Source of the DNA: Anaerolineales bacterium
Lineage (GTDB): Bacteria; Chloroflexota; Anaerolineae; Anaerolineales; E44-bin32
Reading direction: 5' to 3'
DNA: 64,000 bases
Assembly (NCBI GenBank): GCA_040899905.1
Contig: JBBDZX010000005.1
Coordinates: 629,722 to 693,721 of the forward strand
In this document: positions 14,603-60,123 of the stretch, piece after piece
Layout: every line of letters starts with the position of its first letter
Position numbering within the stretch: the stretch's first letter is position 1
Position numbers and translations under genes: made by a program
The notes under the pieces: generated by a model
Told to the model about the DNA's origin: nothing
Databases searched by the model: none
What the model saw: the letters and a program-made list of their open reading frames with translations, nothing else

Positions 14603-15483
14603 GATTCCTCGTTCTGGGCAAGACCGGGCAACTTGGCGCGGAGCTACAACGCGCCCTGGCGCCCCTCGGGCCGGTGGTAGCCTTGGACCGCAGCCAGTGC
14701 GACCTCGCTGTCCCGGACTCCCTTCCACAGGTCCTGCGTCAATACCCGTCCGACGTGGTATTGAATGCTGCCGCGTACACGGCCGTAGACCGCGCCGAGG
14801 CCGAGCAGGACCTAGCACAGACTGTTAACGCGTGGGCCCCCGGGGTCTTGGCGGCCCAAGCCCAGGCCGCTGGCCAGCTGCTGATTCACTATTCGACCGA
14901 CTACGTCTTCGACGGAAGTACCTCACGACCCTACACCGAGGACGATGTTCCCCGCCCGCTTTCGGTCTACGGACAGACCAAGCTGGAGGGAGAGAGAGCC
15001 GTTCAGCGAGCGTGTAAAAACTACCTGATCCTGCGCACCAGCTGGCTCTACAGTATGCGTCGAGCAAACTTCGTCACTCAGGTCCTGGAATGGTCCCGCA
15101 AGCAACCCGCGCTCCACGTCGTCACGGATCAGGTGGGAAGCCCGACTTGGGCCCGTGTCATCGCCGAGGCCACGGCTGGGATTCTCTCGGCAACCGCAGG
15201 GGACCTTCCGGTCCTGAGCCTGCCCTCAGGCGTCTATCACGTGGCGTGCGCGGGCGCGGTCAGTCGATGGGAGTTGGCCCGCGAGGTCCTCCGTCTGGAT
15301 CCGCGTCCCGCCGAGCAGTTGGTTTCTGCTGAGGCAATCCTGCCCGCACGCAGTCGCGAGTTCCCCACTCCCGCCGCCCGGCCGGCCTATTCCGCCCTCG
15401 ATTCGACGCTCGTCCAACGCCGGTTTGGGCTTATCCTTCCAGCCTGGAGCGATTCCCTTCGTTCGGCGATGCAGGCCGGGTGA
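14599..15483 (+). CDS. rfbD: dTDP-4-dehydrorhamnose reductase
   Basis: MRFLVLGKTGQLG...NAAAYTAVDRAE...YSTDYVFDG...YGQTKLEGE. There is an ATGA overlap with rfbA. Confidence 0.93.
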   Translation: MRFLVLGKTGQLGAELQRALAPLGPVVALDRSQCDLAVPDSLPQVLRQYPSDVVLNAAAYTAVDRAEAEQDLAQTVNAWAPGVLAAQAQAAGQLLIHYSTDYVFDGSTSRPYTEDDVPRPLSVYGQTKLEGERAVQRACKNYLILRTSWLYSMRRANFVTQVLEWSRKQPALHVVTDQVGSPTWARVIAEATAGILSATAGDLPVLSLPSGVYHVACAGAVSRWELAREVLRLDPRPAEQLVSAEAILPARSREFPTPAARPAYSALDSTLVQRRFGLILPAWSDSLRSAMQAG

Positions 15484-16088
15484 GGTCGGGCGTGGCGAAC
15501 GGCTTCCCCGCTCTCCTGATCGACCGGGACGGCGTCATCATTGAAAACCGGCCCGACTATGTGCGTTCCTGGGAGGATGTGGTTCCGCTGCCCCGCGCGA
15601 TCAGCGCGCTGGCGCGCCTCCACCAGCCCACCCACAAGGTGGTGATGATTAGCAACCAATCTGCTATCGGGCGGGGCCTCATCACGCTCCGCCAGGCGGA
15701 GGAGATCAACCGTCGACTGGTCGCTCTCCTCGAGACTGCCGGCGCCCGAATCGATGGGGTCTTCATGTGTCCCCATCACCCCGATGAGGCCTGTGCCTGT
15801 AGGAAGCCCCGGCCGGGCCTGATCTTGCAGGCGACCGAAGGACTGGGGCTCGACCTCCGTCGGTCGATCCTGGTCGGCGATGCAATCAGCGACCTGCAGG
15901 CCGGCCGGTCGGCTGGTGTAGCTACCCTGGCCCTCGTTCGCACGGGCCTGGGGCGAGATCAGGAGCAGCATCTTGCCGGAACGGACTTCGCGGCGGTCAA
16001 GGTGTTCGATGATCTCTCGGCGGCCTTGAAGGAGCTTCTCCCTTCGGCCGCCTCGGATTCGAGCGACGGCCGCCGGACCGAAGAGTAG
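15480..16088 (+). CDS. gmhB: D,D-heptose 1,7-bisphosphate phosphatase (HAD family)
   Basis: LLIDRDGVII (DxD), ISNQSAIGRG, CPHHPDEACACRKPRPGL (Zn-finger-like insert) and VGDAISDLQAG. The GTG start overlaps the rfbD TGA. Confidence 0.88.
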   Translation: MRSGVANGFPALLIDRDGVIIENRPDYVRSWEDVVPLPRAISALARLHQPTHKVVMISNQSAIGRGLITLRQAEEINRRLVALLETAGARIDGVFMCPHHPDEACACRKPRPGLILQATEGLGLDLRRSILVGDAISDLQAGRSAGVATLALVRTGLGRDQEQHLAGTDFAAVKVFDDLSAALKELLPSAASDSSDGRRTEE

Positions 16089-35595: not shown

Positions 35596-36804
35596 TCACT
35601 TCTCGGATGGCGAGACTGCCTGGTCCACGAGTGAAACTGGGCTCACCAGCGACTGGTAAATGCTTTCTATGCGACTCAAATACTTATCCGGATCATGATT
35701 GGTTTTGGCGAATTCCATGGCATGCTGAGCGAGAAGGGATCGATGAGCTTCATGTTGGAGCAGGCGAATCAAACCCTCGGCCATCCCTTCTGCTGTTGGC
35801 TCGACCAACATGGCTATATCGTCATTTAACACGAGCGTATGGGCGCGAATATTGGTTGCAATGATGGCTCTCCTTGCATTCAGGTAGCTGTAGACCTTCA
35901 GGGGCACAGAGGTGCCCTCAATTCGAGGTGAAATTAAGACGTCGGCGAGCTCCAAATGAGCTAGCGCCTCGGACGTCGATGTCCTCCCCACGAAGCGGAC
36001 CTTCGAACCAACGTTCAAGGAAGAAGCAACTCGCTTCAGCTCGCTAATCTGAGCCTCAGTACCCCCTACCAGCACGAGCAAAGCATGCGGGTCTTGTTTC
36101 ACCACGCGCCGGAACGCATGCAACAAGACGTCTAAGCCCTGATACCTTTCGAAGCTACCCGTGTAAACGATCACCTTTTGCCCGTTCCGCTTGATGTTCT
36201 CGCGCATCACGTCAACGGTCGCATGGTCACCATCATTCGAGAGGCCAAGCGGCGTGTTTTCGATCGTCCAAATTTCGCTACCGGGCACAACCGATCTTAC
36301 GTAATCCGTGAGATCCTCACCAATCGTAATCACGCTGTCCGCCGTTCGGAGAACAGCACGTTCAAGTATGGCAAACAGATTAGGGAACGGCCAGACGTCG
36401 AGATACTTAAAGTTTTGAAGCTGTCTCGGCAGGCTCGAATGCATATCATATAGATGGCGTGTCCGGAAGATTGCGGCAAGAATCATGGCGAAAAAGGCGG
36501 CCTCTTCGTGAGAATGAATGACATCGTACCGTCGCCGCAGCAAGCGGCCTATTGATTTCAGCAGAACGAATCCGTCGAGGAATAGCTTTGTGAGGGAAGG
36601 CCCGACTCTTACTTCATTGATAAACGGGATATTGGGGATGCGGTGGATAGTTACACCCGGAATCTCAACGTTTTCACCAAGGTGATACGTGACAAGATCC
36701 ACCTCGATACCAAGCTTCGAGAGCGCCTGGAGTCTCTGGTGAACACTAATGGGTGTCCCTCGCGGCTCAAAGAACGGCTGCGGAGCTATCATAAGTACCT
36801 TCAT
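35596..36804 (-). CDS. GT4-family glycosyltransferase
   Basis: [21 protein letters not shown] follows an AAGGAG RBS, and an E-x7-E-type C-terminal region is present. Confidence 0.9.
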   Translation of the reverse strand: MKVLMIAPQPFFEPRGTPISVHQRLQALSKLGIEVDLVTYHLGENVEIPGVTIHRIPNIPFINEVRVGPSLTKLFLDGFVLLKSIGRLLRRRYDVIHSHEEAAFFAMILAAIFRTRHLYDMHSSLPRQLQNFKYLDVWPFPNLFAILERAVLRTADSVITIGEDLTDYVRSVVPGSEIWTIENTPLGLSNDGDHATVDVMRENIKRNGQKVIVYTGSFERYQGLDVLLHAFRRVVKQDPHALLVLVGGTEAQISELKRVASSLNVGSKVRFVGRTSTSEALAHLELADVLISPRIEGTSVPLKVYSYLNARRAIIATNIRAHTLVLNDDIAMLVEPTAEGMAEGLIRLLQHEAHRSLLAQHAMEFAKTNHDPDKYLSRIESIYQSLVSPVSLVDQAVSPSEK

Positions 36805-36850
36805 TCGGAGTCTCCTTACTGCTTCTGGCACTCGAGGTTCTCCCAGCGAG

Positions 36851-36952
36851 CTATTGTGCCTGTGGGTGCTGACAAGCGCCCGTCTGGTTGGCGCTGGTAG
36901 GCGCCTCGCGCGGCTCGAAGAACGGCTCGGGTGCGATCATCAGGACCTTCAT
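36851..36952 (-). pseudogene. GT4 5' fragment (about 23 homologous codons, then divergence and a stop)
   Basis: [23 protein letters not shown]... Its ATG forms an ATGA overlap with the stop of the SIS-GAF gene. It has higher GC than the intact GT4 48 nt downstream. Confidence 0.7.
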
Positions 36953-38238
36953 GGCTCCCCCTCCGCCTCACTCACCTCCGTCATCCGCGGCCATGCGGCG
37001 CCGGCGCCCTGGGCCGGGGCAGCGCGCAACTCCGACCGCTGCTTGACACCCTCCGCCCGAGGCGGGATGGGGGGCGCCCCGGCACTCAAGGAAATGCCCC
37101 CCGCGAGGGCGCTCAACAGGGCCAAATCCCGTTCGGTGAAGCGGCGAGTATCCGGATTCACCAATGTCAGGACACCGATTACACGTTCGCCACCTATCAG
37201 CGGCACGCTGATGGCCGAGCGGGGAGCATTGAGGGCGTCCCACTCCGAGGCCAGCCAGCGAGGATCGCGCTGGGTGTCCTCGACGAGGGCTGGGTTCCCG
37301 TTCCGGAACACCCAGCCCGCCAACCCCCTCCGGAGGGTATCGGCCAGCTGGTGGGGAGCCGGCGGACGGACTTCGCCGGCGTAAGCCACCGCGCCCTCGA
37401 CCAGGTTGCCCGCCTCGTCGAGGACCATCAGGCTTCCGCTCTGCGCCCCGACGTTCTCGACGGTCAGCAACAGCGCCTCCTGCAGCAGGTTGCTGAGGTC
37501 CTTGCCCTCGTACAGCCCTTGCCGCAGTGCGCTCAACGTGCGGCGCCATTTGCCGTCGGTCCCCAAACCATCCAGAACGGCCGGTACTGCCTCGGGGAGA
37601 ACCGCGTCGGACGAACGGCCGAGCTGTTCGGCCTCGTCCCGCAGCGCTTTGCAAATCATGTGCTCGAGCATCAAGTGGACGTCTTCGACGTGCTCGACGC
37701 AGTCGCTCTCGACATGCACGTTCCACTGCACCAGTGAGGCCAGGCGGCCTCCGGAGAATCCAGTGAATCCGATGGTGGTCGCGCCCCGCAGGTTGGCCGC
37801 CTCGACCGCTTCGAGCACGTTGGGGGAATTTCCCGAGGTGGAGATGGCAATCACCACGTCGCCGGATTGCATCAGGCCGATGAGCTGTTCGGCGAACACC
37901 CTCTCGAAGCCGTCGTCGTTGGCGTAGGCGGTGAGGATCGCCACGTTGTCCGTAAGGCCGATCACCCGGAAGCCGGGCCAACCGGCGCGCCGGGTGTTCT
38001 TGGCCAGATCGCAGACGAAGTGCGAGGCGGTCGAGGCGCTGCCTCCGTTCCCCAGGATGAAGACATGCCGCCGGCTCAGCCGCGCTTCGTGCAGAAGGTG
38101 AACCACATGCTCGACCCGGTCCCGGGGGAGCCGATCCAGCGTTGCCTGTAGGTCCGACATATAGGTATCGATAGTGCCCATCCCTCCTCCTCCCGCGGCC
38201 CGGCCGGGACTGCTGCCGGTGCCGGCGGCCAGCGTCAT
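36949..38238 (-). CDS. SIS (GmhA-like sedoheptulose-7-phosphate isomerase) fused to a C-terminal GAF domain
   Basis: SIS domain: [21 protein letters not shown]...[17 protein letters not shown]-like domain: [30 protein letters not shown]...[12 protein letters not shown]...[20 protein letters not shown]...[13 protein letters not shown]. The ATG at 38238 has an ATGA overlap with the kinase stop; an alternative ATG lies at 38181. Confidence 0.8.
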
Positions 38239-39212
38239 CGTCTGTAGTTGAAGATCGTCTTCGAGCCGTCCGCTTCGAGCTTGTACGGAAGTTCGCGCAG
38301 ATCGCGCAGGGCTTCGCGCACGGCCTCCCGGCGCTCCAGCGGTGCGTACACTAGCAGGAACCCTCCGCCGCCCGCGCCGGAGATCTTTCCTCCCAGCGCG
38401 CCGGCCGACCGGGCGGCCTCGTATATGGCGTTGATCCTTCCGTTCGTCACCCCGCTGGCCAGCAGCTTCTTCGCCTCCCACGCCTCGTGCAGCAGGGAGC
38501 CGACGGCGTCCACATTCCCCGCCAGGAGTTCGGCCCGAGCGGTGCGGGCCATGGCCTTGAGCCGCCGAAGCACCGTCAGCCGATCCTGGATGTTCGACTC
38601 CTGTTCGGCCAGGATGGTCTCCGACTTGCGCGCAAAACCAGTATAGAACAGCATCAAGCTCTCGTTCAATCGTCGGATCTGCGACTCATCCACCAGCACC
38701 CTTTCGCAGTGAATCTCGCCGCTGGTGTTGAACTCCATGAACCGCAGCCCGCCGAAGGCGGCGATGTATTCATCCTGGACACCCATCGGCTTGTGCAGGG
38801 TATCGATTTCGATTTCGCACGCCTCGCGCGCCAAGCATTCAGCCGTCACGCTTTCTCCCAGGTAGGCGTACATGGCATGCAGCGCCCCCACGGTGACCGT
38901 GCTGGAAGAGCCCAAGCCGGAACCGGCGGAGGGAATGTCTCCCATGGTGGTAATTTCGACCCCGCGTTGGATCCCTGTCTTCCGCAGCGCTTCCCGGATG
39001 AGCTCGTGCTGGACCTCGTCCACGCGGTCGACCATCTCCGTGCGGGTGTAGCCGATGCGCAGCTTGTCGTCGAAGCGCTTCTTGATCGTGACGAAGATGG
39101 ACTTGTCGATGGCGTAGCTGAGTACGCAGCCGCCCTCCTGGAGGAAGTACGAGCGAAAATCCGTGCCGCCGCCGAACAGGCTCACCCGCAGCGGCGTCTG
39201 GACGATAATCAC
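38235..39212 (-). CDS. hddA: GHMP-family sugar kinase (D-glycero-D-manno-heptose 7-phosphate kinase-like)
   Basis: [19 protein letters not shown]...[15 protein letters not shown]...[12 protein letters not shown]...[14 protein letters not shown]. The GTG start overlaps the epimerase TGA (GTGA). The symbol is family-level only. Confidence 0.85.
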
Positions 39213-40141
39213 GCACCCACCTCCATCTGCTGGAAGTGCCGCACGGTCTCCCGCAGGCCTTCCTCCAGGCCGACTCTCGGGCTCCACCCCAGTTCTCTGG
39301 CGGCTTTGCTCGCATCCAGGTAGATCCTTCGGGTCTCGCCCAGCTTGGCCGGACCGTGAACAGGTTCCCGGCGGTATCCCGTGATCACCTTCAAGCTCCG
39401 GAACACTTCGTTCACCGAAGTCCCGGTGCCCGTGCCAAGGTTGTAGATGCCGCTTCCGTCCGCCTTCCTTAGCGCCTGCAGATTGGCTTGCGCGCAGTCC
39501 CCGACGTAGACAAAGTCGCGCACTTGATCCCCATCGCCGTTGATGATGACCGGTCCATCGGCCAGCATGAGGCCGGTGAAGATCGCCACCACGCCTGCTT
39601 CTCCGTGGGCATCCTGGCGCGGTCCATAGACATTCGGGTAGCGCAGGACGGTGTACTCCAGGCCATAGTTGAGACGGTACATGAACAGGTAGTGCTCTAC
39701 GGTGTGCTTGGAGGCGCCATACTGGCAGATCGGGTTGATCGGGTGCGATTCGTCGCAGGGCAGATACTCCGGCTCTCCGTACACCGCGCCGCCCGTCGAA
39801 ATATACACAAGCCGCCGCACGCCGTACTTCCGAGAGCACTCCAGAAGGTTCAGCGAACCCAGGATGTTCACATCCGCATCCAGGACAGGCTCTTCCACGG
39901 ACCGGCGCACGTCCATCTGCGCCGCGTGATGATTCACGACCTCCGGCTTTTCCAGCTCGAAGATCGAAGCCATCTCCGGACTGCGGATGTCCGCTTCGTA
40001 GAATGTGGCGCGCGGGTTGAGGTTGCGCCGATGGCCTGTGGACAGATCATCCACCACCGCCACCTGATGGCCTTGCTCAAGATAGAGGTCGACTACATGC
40101 GAGCCGATGAAGCCGGCTCCGCCGGTTACGAGGATTTTCAC
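39209..40141 (-). CDS. NAD-dependent epimerase/dehydratase (UDP-glucose 4-epimerase-like)
   Basis: [18 protein letters not shown] and [11 protein letters not shown] (YxxxK). Confidence 0.9.
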
Positions 40142-40177: not shown

Positions 40178-41680
40178 TCAGTACGCGCCGCGGGCTTTCA
40201 GGACCGCCGGGATGGTCTGCCAAAGCAGCTGCAGATCGAGCCAGATATTCCAGTTCCGAATGTAATGCATGTCCAGCCGCACGCGCTCCTCGTAGCCGAT
40301 CTCCGATCGACCGCTCACTTGCCACAGTCCGGTAATTCCGGGGTGGACAGTGAGCAGGTTGATCCCCCACTGCTCGTAGCGGGCCATCTCGGCCGGCGAG
40401 ATCATGCGTGGGCCCACGAGCGACATCTCCCGGCGGAGCACATTGAATAGCTGAGGGAGCTCGTCGAGGCTATAACGCCGCAGAAATCGACCCACCCGGG
40501 TCACGCGCGGGTCGTCCTTGAGCTTGTGCGCGTGGGCCAGTTCGGCCTGCAAGTCCGGACGATCGGCCAGGATCTGGTCTCCGTCCACGCGCATGGTCCG
40601 GAACTTGAAGGCGTCGAACTGCTGGGCATTGACCCCCATCACTCTGCGCCGATGGATGATCGGGCCGGGGGAATCGAGGCGGACCAGCAGCGCCAAGCCG
40701 GCCAGCAAGGGCGCCAGGAACACCACCGCCGCCGTGGTCAGGACGTAATCCAGGGCGGCTTTGATGGCCGAGTCGACTCCGGTCAGCCTCACCCGGTTCA
40801 CCCCGACCAGCGGCACGTAGGCCAGCTCTTTCACGCTCAATCCCGTGGTGATGATCTCGTACAGTCCGGACGACATCCGCAAGTGGATCCCTTCCGACAC
40901 CCCATATCGGCGAAAGATGGCCAGCATGGCCTCGCGCGAGAGCGCGCTGCTCGCCAGGATCAGCTCCTCCACGCCGTGTTCGACGATCAACCGATCCAGA
41001 TCCCCGAGGGCGCCCACCACTCGCAGGTTCTGCGGCAATTTCATGCCCGGATCCTGCTCGCCGTCCACGAAGCCCACCAGCTCGAGCCCGGAAGTCCTCC
41101 ATCGCAGGAGCTGCTCGGCCAGAGCGCTGGCCTCGGCGTTCGCCCCCACGATCAGCGACCTCGCCATGAAGAAGCCGTGCGATCTCAACCTGTACGCGAT
41201 TCGACGGATCACCAGCCTTCCAAGGCTGATGAACAGGAAGGTCAGTCCCCAGGCCATCAACACCCAGCCTCTGGCGACGATGAGTTGAGGATCGAGGAAG
41301 CCGGCCATTACGATGAACAGCAGCCCGATGCTGGTCCCGCGGAAGACCCGCGAGTACTCCTCTGTCCCGCCCAGCAACACCTCACGCTGATAGAGGCCGA
41401 CCACGGCGAAGCTCAGGAGCCACACCGGAGTCAGAACGAGCACCAGCCTGTCGTAATAGACCTTCGACGCAAGCACCTCGGCGAAGATCGACAGGCCGGT
41501 CTCGAATCGGATCCAATAGGCGGCGCGGAGGGCGAGTCCCACCATGAGCAGGTCGGTGACGATCAGGCTGACGATGAGCGCTTTCCACTCCCAGACGCGG
41601 ACGTTCCAGCGCCGGAGCGCGTTGCCTCGCTCCGCCTTGTTCAAGGGGATGCCCTCAAGCACGGGCGCGGATGAGCCCAT
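40178..41680 (-). CDS. polyprenyl-phosphate sugar phosphotransferase (WbaP/large PGT type, priming enzyme)
   Basis: N-terminal TM helices and a C-terminal sugar-transferase domain (DELPQLFNVLRREMSLVGPR...PGITGLWQVSGR). Confidence 0.92.
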   Translation of the reverse strand: MGSSAPVLEGIPLNKAERGNALRRWNVRVWEWKALIVSLIVTDLLMVGLALRAAYWIRFETGLSIFAEVLASKVYYDRLVLVLTPVWLLSFAVVGLYQREVLLGGTEEYSRVFRGTSIGLLFIVMAGFLDPQLIVARGWVLMAWGLTFLFISLGRLVIRRIAYRLRSHGFFMARSLIVGANAEASALAEQLLRWRTSGLELVGFVDGEQDPGMKLPQNLRVVGALGDLDRLIVEHGVEELILASSALSREAMLAIFRRYGVSEGIHLRMSSGLYEIITTGLSVKELAYVPLVGVNRVRLTGVDSAIKAALDYVLTTAAVVFLAPLLAGLALLVRLDSPGPIIHRRRVMGVNAQQFDAFKFRTMRVDGDQILADRPDLQAELAHAHKLKDDPRVTRVGRFLRRYSLDELPQLFNVLRREMSLVGPRMISPAEMARYEQWGINLLTVHPGITGLWQVSGRSEIGYEERVRLDMHYIRNWNIWLDLQLLWQTIPAVLKARGAY

Positions 41681-50811: not shown

Positions 50812-51300
50812 ATGAAGAAACCGGCTTCCCATCCGGCTGCTTCCCCCGGCCAGCCCTCCTGCTTGACCCCGACGGCGTCATCGTCGCCAATCACGAGGAG
50901 GATGTGCGCCCACGGATCAGGTCGAGGTTTTCGACCAGGGCCTCGAGACCCTGGGACAGTCTAACCAATCCGGGGACCTGATCATTATCGTGACGAACCA
51001 GTCCGCGGTCGGCCGCGGCCTAATCGGCCTAGAAACGGCGTAGGAGATCAATCGCCCTGTCGTCCGCCGTATCGAACAGGCCGGCGGTCGGGTGGACGAC
51101 GTCTAAATGTGCCCGCATGCGCCAGCGGCCGGCTGCCCCTGTCGGAAGCCGCGGCCGGGGCTGATCCTAGAGGCGGCCCGGGAACACAACCTCGACTTGC
51201 GCAGGTCCACCTCGCTCGGGGAAGCGCTGACGGAGGCGCAAGCCGGACAGGCCGCCGGTTTGGGGACGACGGGACTGCTCAGCACTTGTCGCGTCCGGTC
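50812..51300 (+). pseudogene. gmhB, third copy, decayed (frameshift, in-frame TAG and TAA)
   Basis: ALLLDPDGVIVANHEEDVRP, a frameshift, then DQVEVFDQGLETLGQ...IIIVTNQSAVGRGLIGLETA*EINRPVVRRIEQAGGRVDDV*MCPHAPAAGCPCRKPRPGLILEAA... Confidence 0.8.
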
Positions 51301-51473
51301 GCAGGCCCTCCCCCCCGGGCCGCCGAGCTTTCAGCCTTCGAGATTCACGATTCACTGCTCGGGGCGGTCACTTCGCGGCTGGCGTCGGATCCTTCCCCCG
51401 CGAGAGCTGACGTCCGAGTCGATCAAACGAGGAGCCCGGCCTCCTGATCTCCGCTTCCTTTGTTGACGCGCTA

Positions 51474-53150
51474 TCAGGAATGACCGTCAGAATCTCGGCC
51501 TTCGCCCGAGGCCCCCGGGTCCGTTGTGGAACGCGCCCGGCCCCGAAGCCGGTCTACGAAGGCGCGGATTGGGCCACGCCCGTTGCCGACTCCTGGCTCC
51601 ATGCGGCCGGAACCATACCAGTACCCCAGGTAACCGTGCGAATAGGCCCGACTCGGGTCATTGATCACGATCCCGACGATCTTGCCATTCACGCGGCGAA
51701 GCTGATCGACGGCATGCTTGAGGGCCGACTCGGGGGTGTGCTTCAGGCGAACCACCACAAGGACTCCGTCCACGCTGGATGCCAGGACAGATGCATCAGC
51801 CAGCAGCGAGGGTGGGCTGTCAATAATCGTGACCTCGTACTCCTCATTCACGCTGGCCATGATCTGTTTCATGCGGGGGGAGTTCAGGATTTCGACTGGG
51901 CCAGGGCCGCCGCTCCCCGCCGGAATGACCCACAGGTTGTCGCTCACCGAGGAACGCTGCGAAACCGTCTTCAGCGGCGGCTTGGCGCCGAACAGATGCC
52001 GCAGGCCCTCGAGATTCGTGACCCCCAGCAGCTTGTGAGAGCTCGGCCGGCGAAGATCGGCATCGATCAGCAGTGTCTTCCTCCCCGCCTGCGCGTAGGC
52101 CCGCGCCAGGTTGGCGGCCACCATGCTCTTCCCATCCCCCGAACCGGGACTGACGACCAGGATGGATCGAAGAGGGATCTCGCCACCGGCGAAATCCAGA
52201 TTGATCCGCAGCGCGCGGAAGGCCTCGTAGTCCGGAGTGGCCGTATCAGTCACCTGGACACCCCCAGGAGAATCATCCTGGCTCCGCACCGAGGCGCGGG
52301 CAAGCCTGCCAATCACCGGGGCATCGGCGGCGCGCATGACGTCCTCCGGCTCGCGCAGAGTTACGTCCAAATGCTCGAGAAGATACGCCGCGCCTCCGCT
52401 GAGCGCCAGCGCGAGCGTGGCCGCCAAAGCGACATAGACCCAGTTCTCAGTGTTGACCGGGCGAGTTGGTAGGTCAGCCGACTCAACAACGCTGATGGTG
52501 TTGACCGGCTCTTCGTCGGTCACACTCAGTAGGGACGCATAGGTGGATTGCAGCGTCGTGAGCTTCGTCTGGAGCGCAGACAGGTCTGTCTGTGCGTCGG
52601 CGATTTGTTCGGCGCTGGTGAACTCCGCCAGGTCGAGCTGTGCCACAGCTATGGCATCCTGAGTCTCGATGATCTTCTCCTCCAGGTAGCTCAGCTGCTC
52701 CTGAATAAACTGCTCACCCTCCGGGTTGACCTGAGACATGGTCTCAGGGACGCGGGCGATGAGCTGCACCGCCAGTTCATTAGCTACCGCTTGGGCGCGG
52801 GCTGGGACTGTGTCTTGGACTACGATCTCGATCAGCTGTCCATCTACAGGAACGGTAACAGTGTAGTTTGGCAGTCCGTCCAGCCCCAGTGCCTCCATCG
52901 TCGCATTGCGAACCGGCTCACGCTTGGCGATGTCGGCGTAGAGACCGGCCAGCAGACGCGGGAGTGTAAAATCCGTGTTCGTCGGATTCGGGGATTGGAT
53001 TGTGCTGCCGACAATGAGCGTCGTCCGCGAAGCATAGAGAGGCTGCTGTCGCTCGACGGCAAAGTAGCTTGCCCCCGTCGCCAACAGGACGGAAAGCACA
53101 ACGAGCCACCACCAGCGTGCGATCGGACGAAGAGTAAAAGAAGCATCCAT
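51474..53150 (-). CDS. Wzz-domain / BY-kinase polysaccharide co-polymerase (Wzc/CapAB-like tyrosine autokinase)
   Basis: The N-terminal chain-length-determinant domain has TM helices. Walker A is SPGSGDGKSMVAANLA, Walker A' is LLIDADLRRP and Walker B is VTIIDSPP. The tail is Tyr-rich (YSHGYLGYWYGSG). Confidence 0.9.
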   Translation of the reverse strand: MDASFTLRPIARWWWLVVLSVLLATGASYFAVERQQPLYASRTTLIVGSTIQSPNPTNTDFTLPRLLAGLYADIAKREPVRNATMEALGLDGLPNYTVTVPVDGQLIEIVVQDTVPARAQAVANELAVQLIARVPETMSQVNPEGEQFIQEQLSYLEEKIIETQDAIAVAQLDLAEFTSAEQIADAQTDLSALQTKLTTLQSTYASLLSVTDEEPVNTISVVESADLPTRPVNTENWVYVALAATLALALSGGAAYLLEHLDVTLREPEDVMRAADAPVIGRLARASVRSQDDSPGGVQVTDTATPDYEAFRALRINLDFAGGEIPLRSILVVSPGSGDGKSMVAANLARAYAQAGRKTLLIDADLRRPSSHKLLGVTNLEGLRHLFGAKPPLKTVSQRSSVSDNLWVIPAGSGGPGPVEILNSPRMKQIMASVNEEYEVTIIDSPPSLLADASVLASSVDGVLVVVRLKHTPESALKHAVDQLRRVNGKIVGIVINDPSRAYSHGYLGYWYGSGRMEPGVGNGRGPIRAFVDRLRGRARSTTDPGASGEGRDSDGHS

Positions 53151-53219
53151 CAGTGTATTCGCGGAAGGGCTTCAAATCGCTGCCCTGTGCCCGCGCTCCC
53201 TCCTTTCAAAGGACCGGCA

Positions 53220-53363
53220 ATCGTCATAAGAATGTTCCTCTGCGGTAGGTCACCAGATCGACAGTGTGCCCCAGCCGGTCACCCCACGCAACCGCCGCAA
53301 AACGCTGATCGGCGTGCCCCGCGGTTCAAAGAACGGCTCGGGCGAGATCATCAGGAACTTCAT
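53220..53363 (-). pseudogene. GT4 5' fragment (third copy of the MK(V/F)LMI(A/S)PEPFFEPRG start)
   Basis: MKFLMISPEPFFEPRGTPISVLRRL..., then a frameshift and a stop. It has an ATGA overlap with the upstream chimeric ORF. Confidence 0.7.
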
Positions 53364-53764
53364 GGCTCCCCTTCCTCCTTGGCCGATCCCTTCGTACGGG
53401 GCCAGCCCGAGGGGACGGAACCAGCCGGCCTCGCCAACGCGACGCCCACCGGCGCCCGCTCCCCGCCGTTGTTGAGCGAGCCCAGGATGTTCACCTGCGC
53501 GTCGAACAGGGGATCGGCCACCGACCGGCGCACGTCCATCTGCGCGGCATGATGGTTGACCACCTCGGGTCGCTCCCGCTCGAAGACTTTCCGGACCGCT
53601 GGGTCACGGATGTCCATTTCATAGACGCGCGCCTCTTGGTTGAGGTTCGACCGCCTGCCGGTCGAGAGAGAGTCCAGGACGACCACATCATGGCCCTCCT
53701 GGAGATACAGATCGACCACGTACGACCCGATAAACCCGGCGCCGCCGGTAGCCAGGATGGTCAT
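53360..53764 (-). pseudogene. chimeric remnant: epimerase N-terminal 98 codons fused to a SIS-GAF-tail-like ~36 codons
   Basis: An AAGGAG RBS precedes [25 protein letters not shown]...[12 protein letters not shown]...VNILGSLN, by eye clearly homologous to 39209-40141. It then continues ...SGWPRTKGSAKEEGEP*, compared with ...[16 protein letters not shown] at 36949. Confidence 0.7.
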
Positions 53765-53929
53765 GAATGCTCCTTGCTTGAAGGTGAGTGGCTCGGCCTG
53801 CCGCGACCGCATGCCGAAGGGGGTATCACCGCCGGCCCGGCCAGCGCCTGTTGCGCCTTCCGCGCCGTCCTGGCCTTCTTCGCAGGCAGCCGGTAGAGAC
53901 GGCTTCGCCCGCTTTGGTTTTTCCACCTG

Positions 53930-54060
53930 GCCGCCACCAACGACCGGGATGGTCTGCCAGAGAAGCTGCAGGTGGCGAACACGAGGGTGAGGTCGCAGGC
54001 GGGGAATTGGTCACAAATGTCTTCGGCCCGTTGCGCACGTCGGCGTTGGCCGGAAGGTCT
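53930..54060 (-). pseudogene. fused fragments: ACAD internal piece joined to the last codons of a sugar phosphotransferase
   Basis: 53971-54045 matches 46186-46260 at about 80% (manual alignment, 60/75). CCGGGATGGTCTGCCAGAGAAGCTGCAG matches 40208-40235 (26/28). Confidence 0.65.
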
Positions 54061-54114
54061 GTGACGGCCCAGAAGGGAGTCCGTATCAGGCCCTGGGCGC
54101 TCGTGTTACCTGCT

Positions 54115-55551
54115 TCACGCTGGCCTTGGCAAGGGCTGCTCATCCGAGCGGGAAGAGTCATGCATGGTGGCGACCCGATGCAGGCTGAGCGCCGCTCCCA
54201 GGAACATCCATCCTGGTACAGCGTCCCGCATGCCGGCCAGTGTGATGTTGTACACGAAGGGTAACAACCAATCCGCCAACATTCCGGCCGCCACCATCCC
54301 TATCAGTCCTCCGAATAGGGAGTAGCTAAGCGCCCTCAGGAATCCGGAGACTCTCTGGTAGCCCCTTAGCCGCCAGAGTAGGGCGCCTGTGGAGACGGAG
54401 TACCACAAGAAAGCGGCGGCTCCTAGGAGCCCGGTCTGGGCCAGGAGGTCAATGTACTGATTGTGTGAGTTGAATAGCACGTTCCAGCCGAGAATCGGGT
54501 TTTCGATGGTATAGAAACGGTAGTTTGCGGGGCCAAAACCGAGTAGAGGACTCCGCTCCATCACCATCCCGACGACAATCTTCCCTGCCTCCACTCGAGT
54601 GACAGCGCTGTACTCCTCGTTAATGAGCAGCAGATCAACTATCTCGGACGCAAAGATGGCTCCCAGTATGAGCATAAACACCGTTGCTACAGCCGCAAAT
54701 CGCGGCCTTGCAGCCCATAGGAGGGCAGTCAAACCAACCAATGCAGGGAGCCATCCTGAGGCAAACTGGGGAGTGATTACTAGTCCCATATACAGAGAGA
54801 CGGCCGTGATCCCTACCAAGACGACTCGCCACAACACCGAGAGCTGGCTATTAAAGAAAGCCTGCCCGAACGCGAGGCACGTCATCCAGGTCCAGAAGAG
54901 GGGTCCGTTTGGACTCTGAACAACCACGAAGGATAGCGCCGCTTGCACGGAGGGAAAGAAAGTGAGCAAGACATACACACTGCCAAAGCCCAGGAACAGC
55001 CAGACCAACCGTTTCAGCCACCGCTCCGTCACAATGTAGCGATCCATTATGAAGACCAGACACGGGAGCAGGACGAGGACCCCAAGCTGGCCCAACTGAG
55101 CTGTCATTGGGGCAGGATCCAGGGGATACCACGGTAGTTGTCCGGCAAGAAAGGAAAGGAGCGTGACTGCAATAAAGATAGACAGCGGTAGATAGATAGA
55201 CGGCACCGTGAGCCGAACGTTCTGTGAGTCGCCGGTAGATACCTCAAGCAGGAAAGCCCCCACCACGAGCGCAAGACCAACCACGCTCATACTTACCTCT
55301 GTTCCTGTTCCGGTCCCAATCGTGATCGGCACCAGGAAGGAAAGCATCATGAGGCCTAGCAGCCCGACCGGTGGCCGTTTGAGCACGATGACTGTCAAAA
55401 GTAGAGCGGCGATCCCGCCGAGCGCCACGGCGATCAACTGCCGCGAACCGAATAGGCCAAGGATGGGACCGCTCAGAAGCACCAGAACCACTATCGCCAA
55501 GCGGCGATAACGATTATTGCTTTCCTGCCGCCACTCCCTTGTCCGAATCAT
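54115..55551 (-). CDS. O-antigen ligase/polymerase-like (Wzy_C domain) membrane protein
   Basis: It has at least 10 TM helices and FNSHNQYIDLLAQTGLLGAAAFLWY. Confidence 0.85.
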   Translation of the reverse strand: MIRTREWRQESNNRYRRLAIVVLVLLSGPILGLFGSRQLIAVALGGIAALLLTVIVLKRPPVGLLGLMMLSFLVPITIGTGTGTEVSMSVVGLALVVGAFLLEVSTGDSQNVRLTVPSIYLPLSIFIAVTLLSFLAGQLPWYPLDPAPMTAQLGQLGVLVLLPCLVFIMDRYIVTERWLKRLVWLFLGFGSVYVLLTFFPSVQAALSFVVVQSPNGPLFWTWMTCLAFGQAFFNSQLSVLWRVVLVGITAVSLYMGLVITPQFASGWLPALVGLTALLWAARPRFAAVATVFMLILGAIFASEIVDLLLINEEYSAVTRVEAGKIVVGMVMERSPLLGFGPANYRFYTIENPILGWNVLFNSHNQYIDLLAQTGLLGAAAFLWYSVSTGALLWRLRGYQRVSGFLRALSYSLFGGLIGMVAAGMLADWLLPFVYNITLAGMRDAVPGWMFLGAALSLHRVATMHDSSRSDEQPLPRPA

Positions 55552-55779
55552 GCTCCCATCCTGGCGCGGGTCCGACCGTGTGGCTCCGGACCCAGTCGCT
55601 TCACCAACTCGAACCGGTCAAAACATCCAAGGGAAAACCTAGGGGCGGCCACGCTCGGCTGGCGGGTCGAACCCATATAGGTCAGGAGACTTCTCTCCAG
55701 CGACAGGCCTGCGATGAGCATGGGACGCAACCACAGCCGAGCCCTAGAGAGGGTCTCAGGCTCCGGCGGTCGCGTCGAT

Positions 55780-56832
55780 CTACGTTTTGGGATGTCCAAA
55801 TGCGCCCATTCCTTCACGGTAGCCTCGGAAGATGTAACCGCCAACCACATACCGGTAGAGCGCCCTGAGCATCCCAGATGCCGGTCGCCACTTCTCCAAA
55901 GCCCTGACGGCGTGCTCCATGCACCACAACGCCGCCGGAGCTGAGGACAGCGAGCGGGCCAGTTTGCGGACGATCAAGCGCGTCCGATCCTTCCCCCAGG
56001 CGATGGGCGTCTTATCGTGGAACATGGGAGTGTGCTCCATCAGCTCAGGGTACTTCTGGAAGAGGACCACGGAGCGGTAGGCGGCCGTCCTCCAACGCTG
56101 GCTATAGGAATACAGCGTACGAGTGTAGCGATCCTGGTGCCAACAGATCGCCTGATGGCTGCGACGGAACTCAAAGCCTTTCTGAAAGGCGCGATAGTTG
56201 AAATCAAGATCACACCATATGCTCGATCCGGAGAAGGCCAGGCCCTGCATCATGCCAATCTCAAAGAAAGCTTCTCGCTCGAGCGCCATGTTGTTGCTGT
56301 GAATCTGGGTGAACGACAGTTCGGTTGTGGCCGTTGCGCGCTCCGCCATCTCGGAAGCGTGCAACGCCTCCACAAGCGGGGTCGATTCCGGAAGCCACGG
56401 TTTCCATATGCCGGCCACAATCCGACGGCGCCGCCCCGCAAGGGTGTGGACGAGTCCGGCCAAATAGCCTGGGTCCAGCACCATATCGTCGTCGATGAAC
56501 ACCAGCAGCTCGGCAAGACTGTGCCGGGCACCTAGGTTGCGAGCTGACGCATCCCCCTGGTTGCGTTGACGGTAGTAGCGTAGAGCAAAAGGAAATTGCT
56601 CGGCTGCGATTGCCTCCGTTCCATCCGTAGAGCCGTCGTCGACCACGATAATCTCAAGGCGATCGTTCGGATAGGTCTGCTGGGAGAGTGCATGGAGCAT
56701 GTTGCCGAGGAACTCCCTCCGGTTGTAGGTGGGGACAATGACGCCCAGCGAAGGGAGGGACGGACTCAAGCGCCCTCGTTCGGCCGACGGAAAGGCGATC
56801 TCCTTGAACTCTCCTTCGATCTCATTTAACAT
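55780..56832 (-). CDS. GT2-family glycosyltransferase
   Basis: LGVIVPTYNRREFL...IIVVDDGSTDGT...FIDDDM. The ATG at 56832 is preferred over the long upstream extension. Confidence 0.85.
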   Translation of the reverse strand: MLNEIEGEFKEIAFPSAERGRLSPSLPSLGVIVPTYNRREFLGNMLHALSQQTYPNDRLEIIVVDDGSTDGTEAIAAEQFPFALRYYRQRNQGDASARNLGARHSLAELLVFIDDDMVLDPGYLAGLVHTLAGRRRRIVAGIWKPWLPESTPLVEALHASEMAERATATTELSFTQIHSNNMALEREAFFEIGMMQGLAFSGSSIWCDLDFNYRAFQKGFEFRRSHQAICWHQDRYTRTLYSYSQRWRTAAYRSVVLFQKYPELMEHTPMFHDKTPIAWGKDRTRLIVRKLARSLSSAPAALWCMEHAVRALEKWRPASGMLRALYRYVVGGYIFRGYREGMGAFGHPKT

Positions 56833-57281
56833 GCGGGCACTGGCGACCGCTCGGTCACAGTTTGCTGACTTGCGATGGCCACCCTCCGGCGCAACTCGCG
56901 ATCCGCAACGGCGAGGAGGTTTCCGGAAGGTTGTAGGCGTCGCCCGGCGCGAACACCAATCCGTTTTCGCCGTGCTCGAAGATCTCGGGAGTTCCGCCCG
57001 TCGGTGTGGCGACGACGACCAGACCAGGCCATACCCTCCAAGGTCATTCGGGAGAATGGCTCCGGCCACGTCGAAGTCACAACGAGGGCGTCGAACTGCA
57101 TGAGAAGTTGGGGGACTCTGGCGGCTGCCACGTGCCCCAGGAAGGACACGTACTCGTCAGCCAGGCCTGCGACACGAGCTGCTGTAACCAGCTCTTTATG
57201 CCCGGCCGTGCCGGAGCTCGCCAGGCTCAGGTGGACATTCCGAGGGCCATGACCCTGGCCCAGCCTTTTCAGCGCCGCCAA
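56826..57281 (-). pseudogene. GT4 3'-half fragment with two internal frameshifts
   Basis: It is collinear with the C-terminal half of 57288-58544 (VHLSLASSGTAGHKEL...VSFLGHV...TSTWPEPFSRMTLEGMAWSG / LVVVATPTGGTPEIFEHGENGLVFAPGD / ...DRELRRRV). It begins right after that gene's stop, and by eye its GC is higher than that of its intact neighbour. Confidence 0.7.
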
Positions 57282-57287
57282 TAGGAG

Positions 57288-58544
57288 CTAGTCGGGGTCG
57301 TACGATCCTGAACGGTCCGCGAGACAATCCCTGAGGTAGGCGTCGATTTCGGTCACCATTCGATTCAGCGTGAATCTCTTCACGACCGTCCGGCGGCCGG
57401 CCTGCACCAAGCGGCGGTGCAATTCCGGATCGGAGACAAGGCGGACAACTTGGTCCGCCAGGCCATTTGCATCCCCCGGTGCAAATGTCAAACCGGTTTC
57501 GCCGTCACTCAGGATTTCTTTGGTCCCCCCCGTTGTCGTACCGACGACGACCAATCCCGAGGCCATCGCCTCCTGCGTAATTCGGGCGAGGGGCTCTTCG
57601 TAAAGAGAAGGAAGAATGAGAACGTCAAATCGCCTTAGGAGGTCCGGCATACTGTCCCTGGCAACCGGCTCGAGGAATGTCACATAATCCACCAAGCGCT
57701 CGCTCACAACGAGACTGCGCAGGGATCGTTCGTACTCCCGGTGGCCTGATCCAATCACAGTTAGGTGGACTTCATTGATCCTGCGCTCATCTACCAGCCT
57801 CGCCATAGCCTGGATCCCCGTGTGAACGCCCTTGTGTTGTACCAACTGCCCCGCGTAGAGCAACCTCAACCGCCGAGCGGGATGATCGGGCTGGTGAGCG
57901 CTGTAGAAGCGTGCCACATCTATGCCGTTATAGATCACGCGGGCGTGCCTCAGAGGCAAACCGGCCTCGACGAGAATCTCGCGCAACCTAGCACTAACAC
58001 AAATCACCTGCTCGAATCTTGGCCTAGGTTGGGGCTCGTTTGGGAGGATGGACATCGCGAGCGCGCTGAGAAAGCGTTTTGGCAGTCGCATAAGCCAGCG
58101 CCGGGAAGGCGACCGCCAATACGTGGTGTGCATGTCGGCTACCAGGGGCCAGTAGTCAGCCAGGTAATAAACCACCCTCCCCGGCATGAGACGTTCCGCC
58201 CACGCCGGGACCGCCTTCGACATCCCCCACATGCCCCAGACAAAGATCAGCTCTGGGGAGAAAGCGCTAACAACCCGTTCCAGCAGCGCCAGGTTTTCCC
58301 CGTGGTGCCGCTTCCAATGGGTGAGAAAGCGGAGAGGCTGATAGTGATGGAGATCGCTTTCGAGATGGAGAAGGCGATAGATGTCCTGCTCCTTCCCTTG
58401 CGCCTTCGCCAGGTCATGGCGGCTGGTCACCACGCCGATGGTGTGACCCCGCTGGGCCAACCCCTCGCTTACCTCCTGGCACAACTGCGTGTACCCACCG
58501 GCATGGGCCGGCGGGTAGAAGTTCGACAGAATGAGAATCCGCAT
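57288..58544 (-). CDS. GT4-family glycosyltransferase
   Basis: MRILILSNFYPPAHAGGYTQLCQEV...EPLARITQEAMASGLVVVGTTTGGTKEIL. Confidence 0.9.
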   Translation of the reverse strand: MRILILSNFYPPAHAGGYTQLCQEVSEGLAQRGHTIGVVTSRHDLAKAQGKEQDIYRLLHLESDLHHYQPLRFLTHWKRHHGENLALLERVVSAFSPELIFVWGMWGMSKAVPAWAERLMPGRVVYYLADYWPLVADMHTTYWRSPSRRWLMRLPKRFLSALAMSILPNEPQPRPRFEQVICVSARLREILVEAGLPLRHARVIYNGIDVARFYSAHQPDHPARRLRLLYAGQLVQHKGVHTGIQAMARLVDERRINEVHLTVIGSGHREYERSLRSLVVSERLVDYVTFLEPVARDSMPDLLRRFDVLILPSLYEEPLARITQEAMASGLVVVGTTTGGTKEILSDGETGLTFAPGDANGLADQVVRLVSDPELHRRLVQAGRRTVVKRFTLNRMVTEIDAYLRDCLADRSGSYDPD

Positions 58545-60107: not shown

Positions 60108-60123
60108 TGGAGGTACTACCCTG

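Follow-up and report, generated by a model that had tools for sequence, protein, structure and literature searches.

GmhA, an enzyme under study as an antibiotic-adjuvant target, carries out the committed step of heptose synthesis. The enzymes of Burkholderia pseudomallei (2X3Y/2XBL), Escherichia coli (2I22), and Mycobacterium tuberculosis (Rv0113) share with the protein described here the SIS fold, the phosphate loops, both histidine metal ligands, and the same place in the heptose pathway, beside HddA and GmhB homologues. Unlike them, this protein carries a C-terminal GAF domain, has T, D, and E at the positions of D61, E68, and Q175 of the B. pseudomallei enzyme, scores under the GmhA equivalog cut-offs, and is known from sequence and models. 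The GDP-heptose module (GmhA-HddA-GmhB-HddC) combines the isomerase with a GHMP-type anomeric kinase and an HAD-type 7-phosphatase, as does the Anaerolineae module reported here, and relatives from this SIS clade are found in complete four-gene operons (locus L083) or fused to each partner enzyme. The Anaerolineae module differs in being joined to an initiating phosphoglycosyl transferase, in bearing a GAF domain on its first enzyme and sometimes on the epimerase, and in that no dedicated nucleotidyltransferase was found nearby, either in the DNA analyzed or at 80 related loci.

In PtsP (EI-Ntr), the GAF-regulated phosphodiesterases and adenylyl cyclases, and the HD-GYP protein 4MCW, the GAF domain is N-terminal. 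Like the present protein, these enzymes carry it covalently on a catalytic domain, and our GAF fold matches theirs with a Foldseek probability of 1.0, although the identity is just 14-23%. Their partner is a signaling or PTS enzyme, whereas here the GAF domain is C-terminal, follows a predicted-disordered linker, and is attached to a sugar-phosphate isomerase-like partner. We know of no earlier example of allosteric control of nucleotide-sugar biosynthesis by a GAF domain. A literature search for the SIS-GAF fusion returned incidental co-mentions of both domains and no describing paper, in agreement with the preliminary description of this locus, which knew of no characterized GmhA-GAF enzyme; nor was any regulatory domain on GmhA described in the literature searched. 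The second histidine is lost in DiaA. This DnaA initiator-associating protein (2YVA, 4U6N) has a GmhA-type SIS fold, with HMM and fold scores like those of our protein, and lacks the catalytic glutamate, which is replaced by serine (PMC7705670), whereas our protein keeps the metal-capable residues His, Asp, Glu, and His and is encoded in a glycan operon rather than in a replication context.

The locus lies in a 64-kb stretch of an Anaerolineales genome (the window). Our preferred reading, to which we give an even chance, is that the SIS-GAF protein serves as the sedoheptulose-7-phosphate isomerase in a pathway for heptose-containing surface glycan, with an accessory GAF domain for putative small-molecule tuning.

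Gene structure and the heptose-type module

The genes and domains of the locus are as follows.

36949..38181, minus strand: SIS-GAF gene, 410 aa and stop codon (the most probable reading; from ATG 38238 the product would have 429 aa)
37621..38181, minus strand: GmhA-like SIS domain, residues 1-187 (Pfam, PDB phmmer, Foldseek, AF2; signature residues invariant in 82 sequences)
37552..37620, minus strand: inter-domain linker, residues 188-210 (AF2 pLDDT, homologue comparison)
37084..37551, minus strand: GAF domain, residues 211-366 (Pfam, AF2 domain model, Foldseek, invariant columns)
36949..37083, minus strand: C-terminal tail, residues 367-410, plus stop (predicted disordered, non-conserved)
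35596..36831, minus strand: downstream GT4 glycosyltransferase (Pfam; probable start ATG 36804, with AAGGAGA before it)
38235..39212, minus strand: HddA-like GHMP sugar kinase, 325 aa (Pfam GHMP_kinases_N/C; its start codon GTG and the epimerase stop overlap as GTGA)
39209..40141, minus strand: GalE-like SDR epimerase/dehydratase, 310 aa (Pfam Epimerase, 206 bits)
40178..41680, minus strand: initiating phosphoglycosyl transferase, CoA_binding_3 plus Bac_transf (Pfam; exact start uncertain)
15480..16088, plus strand: GmhB-like HAD phosphatase, the sole intact one in the window (Pfam Hydrolase_like/PNK3P; overlaps the rmlD stop)
About 13712-14602: true RmlA, the only nucleotidyltransferase that the search of the window gave

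One stop-free minus-strand ORF that ends at 36949 covers both the SIS and the GAF halves. The true start is most likely ATG 38181 (MGTIDTY...) rather than ATG 38238. A Shine-Dalgarno-like run, GGAGGAGGG, lies just upstream of ATG 38181, the identical NCBI protein MEX2030604.1 (P0001; 410 aa) begins there, and the N-termini of 108 homologues line up with the residue 1 encoded at this position. The 19 additional residues encoded from 38238 are not conserved among homologues, so the ATGA shared with the stop of the kinase gene is probably coincidental. With the start at 38181, a gap of 53 nt separates the kinase gene from the SIS-GAF gene, and the translational coupling of the two that the preliminary description had proposed depends on what is probably the wrong start. 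That description had also considered that a downstream start might leave two separate proteins; the start does most likely lie downstream, while the ORF is uninterrupted and both domains are retained. The GTGA overlap of kinase and epimerase can be read in the sequence as it had stated. A promoter and terminator scan from 35.4 to 43.2 kb gave counts no higher than in shuffled sequence.

The placement of the gene inside a heptose-type module, adjoining an HddA-like kinase, is upheld by the Pfam domains and by the closest solved structures of the kinase, which are heptose kinases (3k85, 4usk, and 4n3o; E 1e-33 to 1e-41), its score against the NCBIfam HddA model being 157 bits, under the cut-off of 600. 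The epimerase scores 209 bits against NCBIfam galE (cut-off 262). The only intact gmhB-like gene of the window lies 21 kb off, as had been noted; its product scores 166.4 bits against NF006506, just below the cut-off of 178, and is 50% identical to the HAD protein adjoining SIS-GAF in locus L002, which passes this GmhB equivalog cut-off (182.6 versus 178). No HddC-type nucleotidyltransferase was found in the 64-kb window, again as first described, where the search gave true RmlA only; this search, which combined phmmer using RmlA of E. coli with a G-loop regular expression, covered the window and 82 loci and would miss a very divergent or non-homologous nucleotidyltransferase.

The same gene order recurs in most related loci: Bac_transf, an optional epimerase, GHMP kinase, SIS(-GAF), and a GmhB-like HAD gene. 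In most loci extending that far, the phosphoglycosyl transferase gene stands upstream of that of the kinase, either next to it or with one epimerase between, and an epimerase occupies this slot in many related loci. Both the kinase and the HAD gene adjoin SIS(-GAF) in most cases, and the order of SIS-GAF followed by GT4 is found also in L001, L004, and L031. A dedicated nucleotidyltransferase was not seen in the module within 8 kb at any of the 80 related genome loci; L008, L024, and L030 have RmlA-type genes several kilobases from the module, and L070 gave a weak match. The more distant locus L083 has a complete operon of NTP_transferase, GHMP, and SIS::HAD.

The SIS-GAF protein is a conserved family of the Anaerolineae, not a rare one, and an uncharacterized variant of a known enzyme. 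All 120 best matches to the window protein combine SIS and GAF (47-85% identity), and among the top 150 representatives of clusters built at 50% identity are 38 SIS-GAF and 4 GHMP-SIS-GAF proteins. Nearly all of the 80 related genome loci come from Chloroflexota, mostly Anaerolineae. The preliminary description had held that its finding would fail if the architecture proved common and already characterized; it is conserved in the Anaerolineae, and a paper describing it was not found in the literature searched. Members of the SIS clade are elsewhere fused to a GHMP kinase (P0131, P0143, P0148, and P0175), to a GmhB-like HAD domain (P0199, P0224, and P0235), or to an NTP_transferase (P0193), and these fusions give good support to a role as sedoheptulose-7-phosphate isomerase. 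Orthologues with 56-66% identity in the SIS domain and the same operon slot lack the GAF domain, which is accessory and, in close orthologues, dispensable. A neighbor-joining tree of the SIS domain has a star-like shape in which sequences with and without the GAF domain are intermingled; since it is unbootstrapped, no number of GAF gains or losses is claimed.

The GAF half: a possible ligand pocket or scaffold

The combination of SIS and GAF in one protein is real by HMM (SIS_2, SIS, GAF_2, GAF, and GAF_3) and by predicted fold. Pfam match positions are given here in the 429-aa numbering, and AF2 domain borders refer to the 410-aa protein. GAF_2 matches residues 246-383 (80.9 bits; E 1.3e-22; cut-off 28.6), and GAF (62.8 bits versus 22.4) and GAF_3 (46.2 bits versus 27) match the same half. 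The full-length AF2 model contains two confident domains, SIS 1-187 (pLDDT >90) and GAF 211-366, in a mutual orientation that is not confident (pTM 0.53). Because its Foldseek list was dominated by GmhA, the GAF domain was modeled separately (pLDDT 86; pTM 0.83), and this model matches >40 solved GAF chains with a probability of 1.0 and TM scores of 0.5-0.65. The GAF assignment, made at first for the C-terminal ~170 aa, holds for residues 211-366, and the last ~44 residues are a non-conserved, predicted-disordered tail (pLDDT about 36-42; 4-49 aa long and 14.5% identical among homologues).

Mean pairwise identity is 55% in the GAF domain versus 14% in the linker, which ranges from 12 to 47 aa among 109 homologues and is predicted to be disordered at residues 190-205 (pLDDT <50). 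This comparison suggests that the GAF domain is under selection. Its family-invariant motifs are GLAGWV, T..DPRW, and W314, and the invariant residues fall at the alpha3/alpha4 junction (GLAGWV), in the long beta4-beta5 loop (T303, D306, R308, W309, and W314), and at the start of beta5; R321 and S322 are near-invariant. The alpha3/alpha4 junction, beta4-beta5 loop, and beta5 start are the usual ligand-pocket elements of GAF structures. The Foldseek relatives are generic, at 14-23% identity, and bind cAMP, haem, Met-sulfoxide, 2-oxoglutarate, or nothing, so that the fold does not specify a ligand. In an alignment of 109 sequences, no invariant or near-invariant column of the GAF domain holds a Cys or His, and the fRMsr-like, haem-binding, and bilin-binding types of GAF domain were rejected on this ground. 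Of the cNMP-type NKFDE motif, just an F-x3-D remnant was seen, by eye and outside a proper alignment.

Direct control of heptose supply by a ligand of the GAF domain, as the preliminary description had envisaged, is plausible as a putative function. The same GAF subtype is present on the operon's epimerase in two loci (L052 and L039), where it is carried by both the epimerase and the GHMP-SIS protein of one operon, and this points to a module dedicated to the pathway. The pairing would also suit a GAF domain that senses no ligand and acts as an oligomerization or scaffold module, joining the isomerase with itself or with other pathway enzymes, an explanation that we consider possible and rather doubtful. 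GAF domains commonly dimerize, and a flexible, unconserved linker suits a tethered docking domain. Mutual binding of GmhA, HddA, and GmhB with micromolar affinity, reported in M. tuberculosis (PMC7705670), is consistent with such a scaffold. However, a second GAF-tagged enzyme is present in just 2 of about 50 GAF-bearing loci, and pairing of different GAF-tagged enzymes therefore cannot be the general function. In addition, the invariant polar residues T303, D306, and R308 and the near-invariant R321 and S322 are placed in the usual pocket elements and not only in the terminal helices, which speaks against a scaffold.

The SIS half: a GmhA-like clade with a remodeled site

SIS_2 matches residues 26-160 (61 bits; E 1.6e-16; cut-off 27) and SIS matches residues 118-175 over the Pfam gathering score, both in the 429-aa numbering. 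A phmmer search of the PDB with the window protein finds GmhA at E of about 1e-26, and the SIS half fits ten different solved GmhA structures with target-normalized TM scores of 0.79-0.87. Identity to B. pseudomallei GmhA is 38.6% over 140 aligned residues. The GmhA equivalog cut-offs are nevertheless missed (TIGR00441, 112.1 versus 209.45; NF010546, 116.5 versus 276; NF001628, 85 versus 265; NF010547, 82.2 versus 320), and a GAF-less member of the clade, at locus L060, likewise scores under the NCBIfam GmhA cut-offs.

The window protein retains the GNGGS and S-x-S-G-N-S phosphate loops, in which N45, G47, S48, S114, S116, and S119 are constant across 82 sequences and T115 varies (T, A, G, or C). 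Both histidine metal ligands of GmhA (H64 and H183 in B. pseudomallei) are kept as H54 and H174. In all 82 clade sequences, Thr51, Asp58, and Glu166 replace D61, E68, and Q175, which are conserved and mutation-sensitive positions in the B. pseudomallei enzyme; Q175 and E68 are the proposed catalytic and zinc-binding residues, and an engineered Q175E enzyme was among the activity-affecting mutants and trapped substrate (PMC5705639, PMC7705670). The metal-ligand positions H54, D58, E166, and H174 are invariant in 82/82 sequences. The GmhA hallmarks first ascribed to this half are accordingly seen in the phosphate loops and both histidines and not in the three substituted positions or the equivalog scores. 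Judged from these alignments, the SIS half appears to form a distinct GmhA-like clade with a remodeled H/D/E/H metal site of four metal-capable residues.

Because the metal site is remodeled, the SIS half might be an isomerase of other specificity, producing D-glycero-D-gluco-heptose-7-phosphate (the other C2 epimer) or acting on another ketose phosphate. The invariance of T, D, and E throughout the clade, the proposed catalytic and zinc-binding roles of Q175 and E68 (PMC5705639, PMC7705670), and the scores under the GmhA cut-offs are in its favor. We consider it unlikely, since fusions and operons link the clade to HddA-, GmhB-, and HddC-type enzymes in just the manner of the GDP-heptose pathway, since the clade keeps both histidine ligands and the phosphate-binding loop, and since the D61-to-T and Q175-to-E changes may compensate each other in charge. 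An isomerase of other specificity would fit either view of the GAF domain.

The non-canonical active-site residues could also indicate a non-catalytic sugar-phosphate binder, comparable to DiaA or the RpiR/MurR regulators, in which case SIS-GAF would be a dual sensor. The NCBIfam DiaA model does match the window protein (84 bits), and DiaA structures fit the SIS fold as well as those of GmhA do. This possibility appears slim, given that the His, Asp, Glu, and His residues are metal-capable and invariant whereas DiaA has a serine at the E68 position (PMC7705670), that an output or DNA-binding domain is absent, and that heptose operons complete in every other respect, for example that of L083, have no isomerase candidate but a GAF-less member of the clade. 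That the fusion is an artefact of a frameshift, an assembly error, or the separate translation of two proteins is effectively refuted by the uninterrupted window ORF and by the architecture in >150 independent clusters from many assemblies, even though at L067 the GAF part is out of frame with the SIS part and separated from it by 44 nt, in an assembly that may carry a frameshift.

Proposed role in heptose supply

From the domain and operon relationships, we infer a heptose-7-phosphate isomerase activity with sedoheptulose-7-phosphate as its substrate. In the pathway that we propose, the SIS domain would convert sedoheptulose-7-phosphate to a glycero-manno-heptose-7-phosphate, the adjoining HddA-like GHMP kinase would phosphorylate C1, and the GmhB-like phosphatase would remove the 7-phosphate, after which a nucleotidyltransferase encoded elsewhere would supply the cluster's glycosyltransferases with the activated sugar. 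The GAF domain would be an accessory module on a flexible linker, most likely binding a small molecule and tuning the committed isomerase step, and it could act through contact with the SIS oligomer, to which it would dock, or through an altered assembly of that oligomer. Against allosteric control by the putative GAF ligand stand the unconserved, predicted-disordered linker, the low confidence of the predicted domain orientation, the close orthologues without a GAF domain, and the generic character of the Foldseek relatives. The T/D/E substitutions and the sub-threshold NCBIfam scores speak against a canonical GmhA, and the search for a dedicated nucleotidyltransferase, with none in the window or within 8 kb at 80 loci, against a complete pathway.

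A bolder and tentative proposal is that a pathway-dedicated GAF domain was added to the isomerase, and in certain lineages to the epimerase as well, and would place nucleotide-heptose supply under small-molecule control and, separately, that the invariant T/D/E/H site marks a mechanistically distinct class of sedoheptulose-7-phosphate isomerase. Such control, if real, could for example be feedback by a pathway product or a response to a second messenger. The natural H/D/E/H site offers a ready test of the proposed zinc-dependent mechanism, since engineered Q175E affects the activity of the Burkholderia enzyme (PMC5705639, PMC7705670). The practical impact is modest for now, pending a ligand or a phenotype. 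To our knowledge, the envelope glycans of the Anaerolineae are hardly characterized, and these clusters predict that they contain heptose. A GAF-tagged isomerase in the culturable Anaerolinea and Longilinea would make a tractable system for post-translational control of surface-glycan precursor supply, the cultured carriers of SIS-GAF including Anaerolinea thermolimosa IMO-1 (L012), Longilinea arvoryzae KOME-1 (L022), and A. thermophila. In the databases, the SIS-GAF homologues are listed under automatically assigned names, namely 'D-sedoheptulose 7-phosphate isomerase', 'GAF domain-containing protein', and 'SIS domain-containing protein'.

Gene structure and distribution of the SIS-GAF protein

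The SIS-GAF gene (36949..38181, minus strand) lies in a single open reading frame without stops, 36949-38481, and its SIS and GAF halves therefore form one polypeptide, as the preliminary description had supposed. Translation from ATG 38238, the start assumed there, gives 429 aa. In this numbering, the following Pfam domains exceeded their gathering scores:

SIS_2, residues 26-160, 61 bits, E 1.6e-16
SIS, residues 118-175
GAF_2, residues 246-383, 80.9 bits, E 1.3e-22
GAF, 62.8 bits
GAF_3, 46.2 bits

The ATG at 38181 is the more likely start, because GGAGGAGGG lies 5' of it, an identical protein in NCBI (MEX2030604.1, [quoted passage not shown]) is 410 aa long, and its Met is the N-terminus of all aligned homologues. 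This downstream start still yields a single SIS+GAF protein, and residues are numbered from it hereafter. It leaves 53 nt between the kinase and SIS-GAF genes, so the ATGA shared with the kinase stop codon, from which translational coupling had been proposed, is probably a coincidence; the GTGA at the epimerase-kinase junction is a real overlap. The C-terminal ~44 residues form an unconserved tail, and tails across the family range from 4 to 49 aa with 14.5% identity.

A full-length AlphaFold2 model built from 109 homologues contains two confident domains, SIS (residues 1-187, pLDDT mostly >90) and GAF (211-366, pLDDT about 85-95), with low confidence in the linker (190-205) and tail (371-410); with a pTM of 0.53, the orientation of SIS relative to GAF is undefined in this model. 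The SIS half matched solved GmhA structures in Foldseek with target-normalised TM scores of 0.79-0.87. The GAF region modelled separately (pLDDT 86.4, pTM 0.83) matched, at probability 1.0, dozens of GAF domains of known structure, and this fold, together with the profile matches, confirms that the C-terminal half is a GAF domain.

SIS-GAF is a family and not a singleton. The best 120 matches among 5.8 billion proteins were all SIS+GAF (47-85% identity, mostly 350-420 aa). The best 150 representatives of a second library, clustered at 50% identity, included 38 SIS-GAF, 4 GHMP-SIS-GAF, 57 SIS-only, 5 SIS-HAD, 3 GHMP-SIS, and 1 NTP_transferase-SIS proteins, with fusion architectures confirmed by Pfam. 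Four clade members (P0144, P0154, P0163, and P0265, homologues from the library search) seem to contain two SIS domains in tandem; in P0144, two SIS_2 stretches lie within 397 aa. A one-genome-per-species scan found 80 loci, nearly all in Chloroflexota and mostly in Anaerolineae, and carriers include the cultured Anaerolinea thermolimosa IMO-1 and Longilinea arvoryzae KOME-1 as well as an A. thermophila MAG and Bellilinea. The presumed novelty of the architecture thus holds only in part: it is already abundant in databases under the automatic names "D-sedoheptulose 7-phosphate isomerase," "GAF domain-containing protein," and "SIS domain-containing protein," and as a sequence family it is therefore not new, while a full-text literature search uncovered no publication describing a protein of the GmhA-GAF or SIS-GAF type and its biology is unstudied. 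Cultured carriers and an interesting, naturally occurring active-site variant make SIS-GAF well suited to experiment, although it does not amount to a new category of system.

Active site and pathway partners of the SIS half

The window protein was aligned without gaps to Burkholderia pseudomallei GmhA.

Active-site residues of B. pseudomallei GmhA and their window counterparts (B. pseudomallei/window)
Zinc ligands: H64/H54, E68/D58, Q175/E166, H183/H174
Water-channel residue: D61/T51

All five window residues are invariant in the clade of GmhA-like SIS proteins sharing this T/D/E/H pattern (82/82 sequences, GAF-bearing or GAF-less), and the pattern occurs in 202 of 213 hits containing GNGGS. 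The four zinc ligands are completely conserved in GmhA orthologues and sensitive to mutation; D61A retains 6% activity, and the Q175E mutant trapped substrate (PMC5705639). The Gln is fully conserved across 11 structures (PMC7705670). The GmhA hallmarks noted earlier therefore stand for the phosphate-binding serines and both histidines, which are kept, but not for E68, Q175, and D61, which are replaced by D, E, and T, nor for the GmhA equivalog models (112-116 bits against cut-offs of 209-276), scores in line with substituted conserved active-site residues. Based on these substitutions and scores, we regard the SIS half as a distinct GmhA-like clade and not as a canonical GmhA equivalog. Judging from the residues present, its H/D/E/H set can bind a metal, and it most probably still isomerises sedoheptulose-7-P; a different product epimer is possible.

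The assignment as an isomerase draws on gene context, which in the window runs on the minus strand as follows:

GT2 and GT4 glycosyltransferases
phosphoglycosyl transferase (Bac_transf)
GalE-like epimerase
GHMP kinase
SIS-GAF
GT4, FAD oxidoreductase, and methyltransferase
second epimerase and YdjM

A phmmer survey of 82 related loci found the block of Bac_transf, optional epimerase, GHMP kinase, and SIS(-GAF) in most of them, usually followed directly by a GmhB-like HAD phosphatase on the opposite strand. The closest solved relatives of the window kinase are heptose kinases (3k85, 4usk/WcbL, and 4n3o; E 1e-33 to 1e-41), and the HAD adjoining SIS-GAF in locus L002 passes the NCBI GmhB equivalog cut-off (182.6 versus 178). 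Gene fusions make the best case for the SIS half as the isomerase in a heptose pathway of the GHMP-kinase type: in other lineages the clade SIS is fused to kinase, phosphatase, or nucleotidyltransferase, and locus L083 holds a complete NTP_transferase, GHMP, SIS::HAD operon. With context and fusions in its favour, we consider this enzyme assignment likely; the SIS half would catalyse the committed step of a heptose-glycan pathway.

As previously described, the window lacks an HddC-type nucleotidyltransferase gene, and none was found in the 8 kb around the module in 80 genome loci, where the search recovered only genuine RmlA genes several kb away. Its gene must lie elsewhere, or the step falls to a housekeeping enzyme. 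The only intact HAD of the window (15480-16088), correctly placed beside the rfb/rml genes, scores 166.4 on the GmhB model and overlaps the rmlD stop. It ends a head-to-tail series of rmlB, rmlA (the sole nucleotidyltransferase in the window), rmlD, and gmhB-like genes (12369-16088, plus strand) with overlapping stops and starts, so that the heptose phosphatase is co-transcribed with the dTDP-rhamnose genes.

Two loci differ in setting. In the A. thermophila MAG (L006, 3109-9143), SIS-GAF has no adjoining kinase or phosphatase and is preceded by epimerase, hexapeptide acyltransferase, GT2, and radical-SAM genes, accessory genes also found downstream of the module in L002. In locus L084 (1923-5359 and flanks), a T/D/E/H-clade SIS sits in an epimerase, GHMP, SIS, unknown, HAD block adjoining Peptidase_M23, Laminin_G_3, a pair of GT2 genes, and numerous small ORFs without annotation, which may be a phage or prophage setting for the heptose module.

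Conservation and possible role of the GAF half

Mean pairwise identity is 55% in GAF, 64% in the SIS domain, and 14% in the linker. The invariant GAF residues (G286-L-A-G-W-V291, T303, D306, R308, W309, P327, G336, T339, and F348, with W314 near-invariant) are located in the model at the alpha3/alpha4 junction, the long beta4-beta5 loop, and the following strands, which together make up the ligand pocket in GAF structures. The family alignment contains no conserved Cys or His in GAF, which argues against haem, bilin, and fRMsr types. Its Foldseek neighbours are generic (14-23% identity; Lcd1 with cAMP, DosT/DosS with haem, an HD-GYP protein, fRMsr, NifA, and PtsP), and no ligand can be assigned on the strength of these matches.

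GAF is accessory, since GAF-less orthologues with 56-66% SIS identity occupy the same operon slot in 30 loci; GAF-bearing and GAF-less sequences interleave in a neighbour-joining tree built without bootstrap. The reading we favour is that GAF is an optional ligand-binding regulatory module that would tune the isomerase, an inferred role to which we give slightly less than an even chance, and the combined reading of a SIS isomerase with a ligand-binding regulatory GAF is evenly balanced.

Two further facts constrain the mechanism. The linker (12-47 aa) is unconserved and predicted to be disordered, which makes a rigid signalling helix unlikely; a tethered docking or assembly mechanism would fit better. 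Loci L052 and L039 carry this GAF subtype, motifs included, on the operon epimerase as well, beside a triple fusion of GHMP, SIS, and GAF (epimerase::GAF, 523 aa, and GHMP-kinase::SIS::GAF, 768 aa; L052 5227-6798 and 6882-9188; L039 140-1711), suggesting that the module belongs to the pathway and not to the isomerase alone. The main rival is that GAF is a ligand-independent scaffold or oligomerisation module. Operons with two GAF-tagged enzymes fit a scaffold, as does the reported micromolar-affinity interaction of Mycobacterium tuberculosis GmhA, HddA, and GmhB (PMC7705670), but a second GAF-tagged partner is rare (2 of about 50 loci).

Remnants and duplications in the window

Several decayed copies of these genes lie in the window:

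36884-36952, minus: GT4 5' remnant, ATGA-coupled, directly on the SIS-GAF stop codon
53360-53926, minus: 188-aa ORF, ghost of a second module copy (region 53268-53926)
50915-51337 and 16865-17130, plus: truncated gmhB-like HAD copies

The GT4 remnant shares 74% identity with residues 10-32 of the genuine GT4 downstream, which is intact, lower in GC, and begins about 150 nt beyond it; GC falls across 30-38 kb from about 0.64 to 0.53-0.60. The remnant and the GC drop look like a recombination breakpoint at which the distal part of the glycan cluster was replaced. The ghost ORF joins epimerase residues 1-98 (69% identity to gene 39209-40141) to a SIS-GAF-type tail ending in ...GWPRTKGSAKEEGEP*, and a truncated GT4 start is again coupled to it through ATGA. 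The kinase and most of the isomerase were apparently lost through a deletion inside this copy. The truncated gmhB-like copies are 42-56% identical to intact ones and accompany the intact gene at 15480-16088; the heptose genes of this genome have been duplicated and have decayed.

A second polysaccharide cluster spans 51474-63005:

51474-53150: P-loop ATPase resembling a polysaccharide co-polymerase tyrosine kinase
54115-55551: Wzy_C polymerase/ligase
after Wzy_C: GT2, two GT4, and another GT2
61326-63005: type I phosphodiesterase/nucleotide pyrophosphatase
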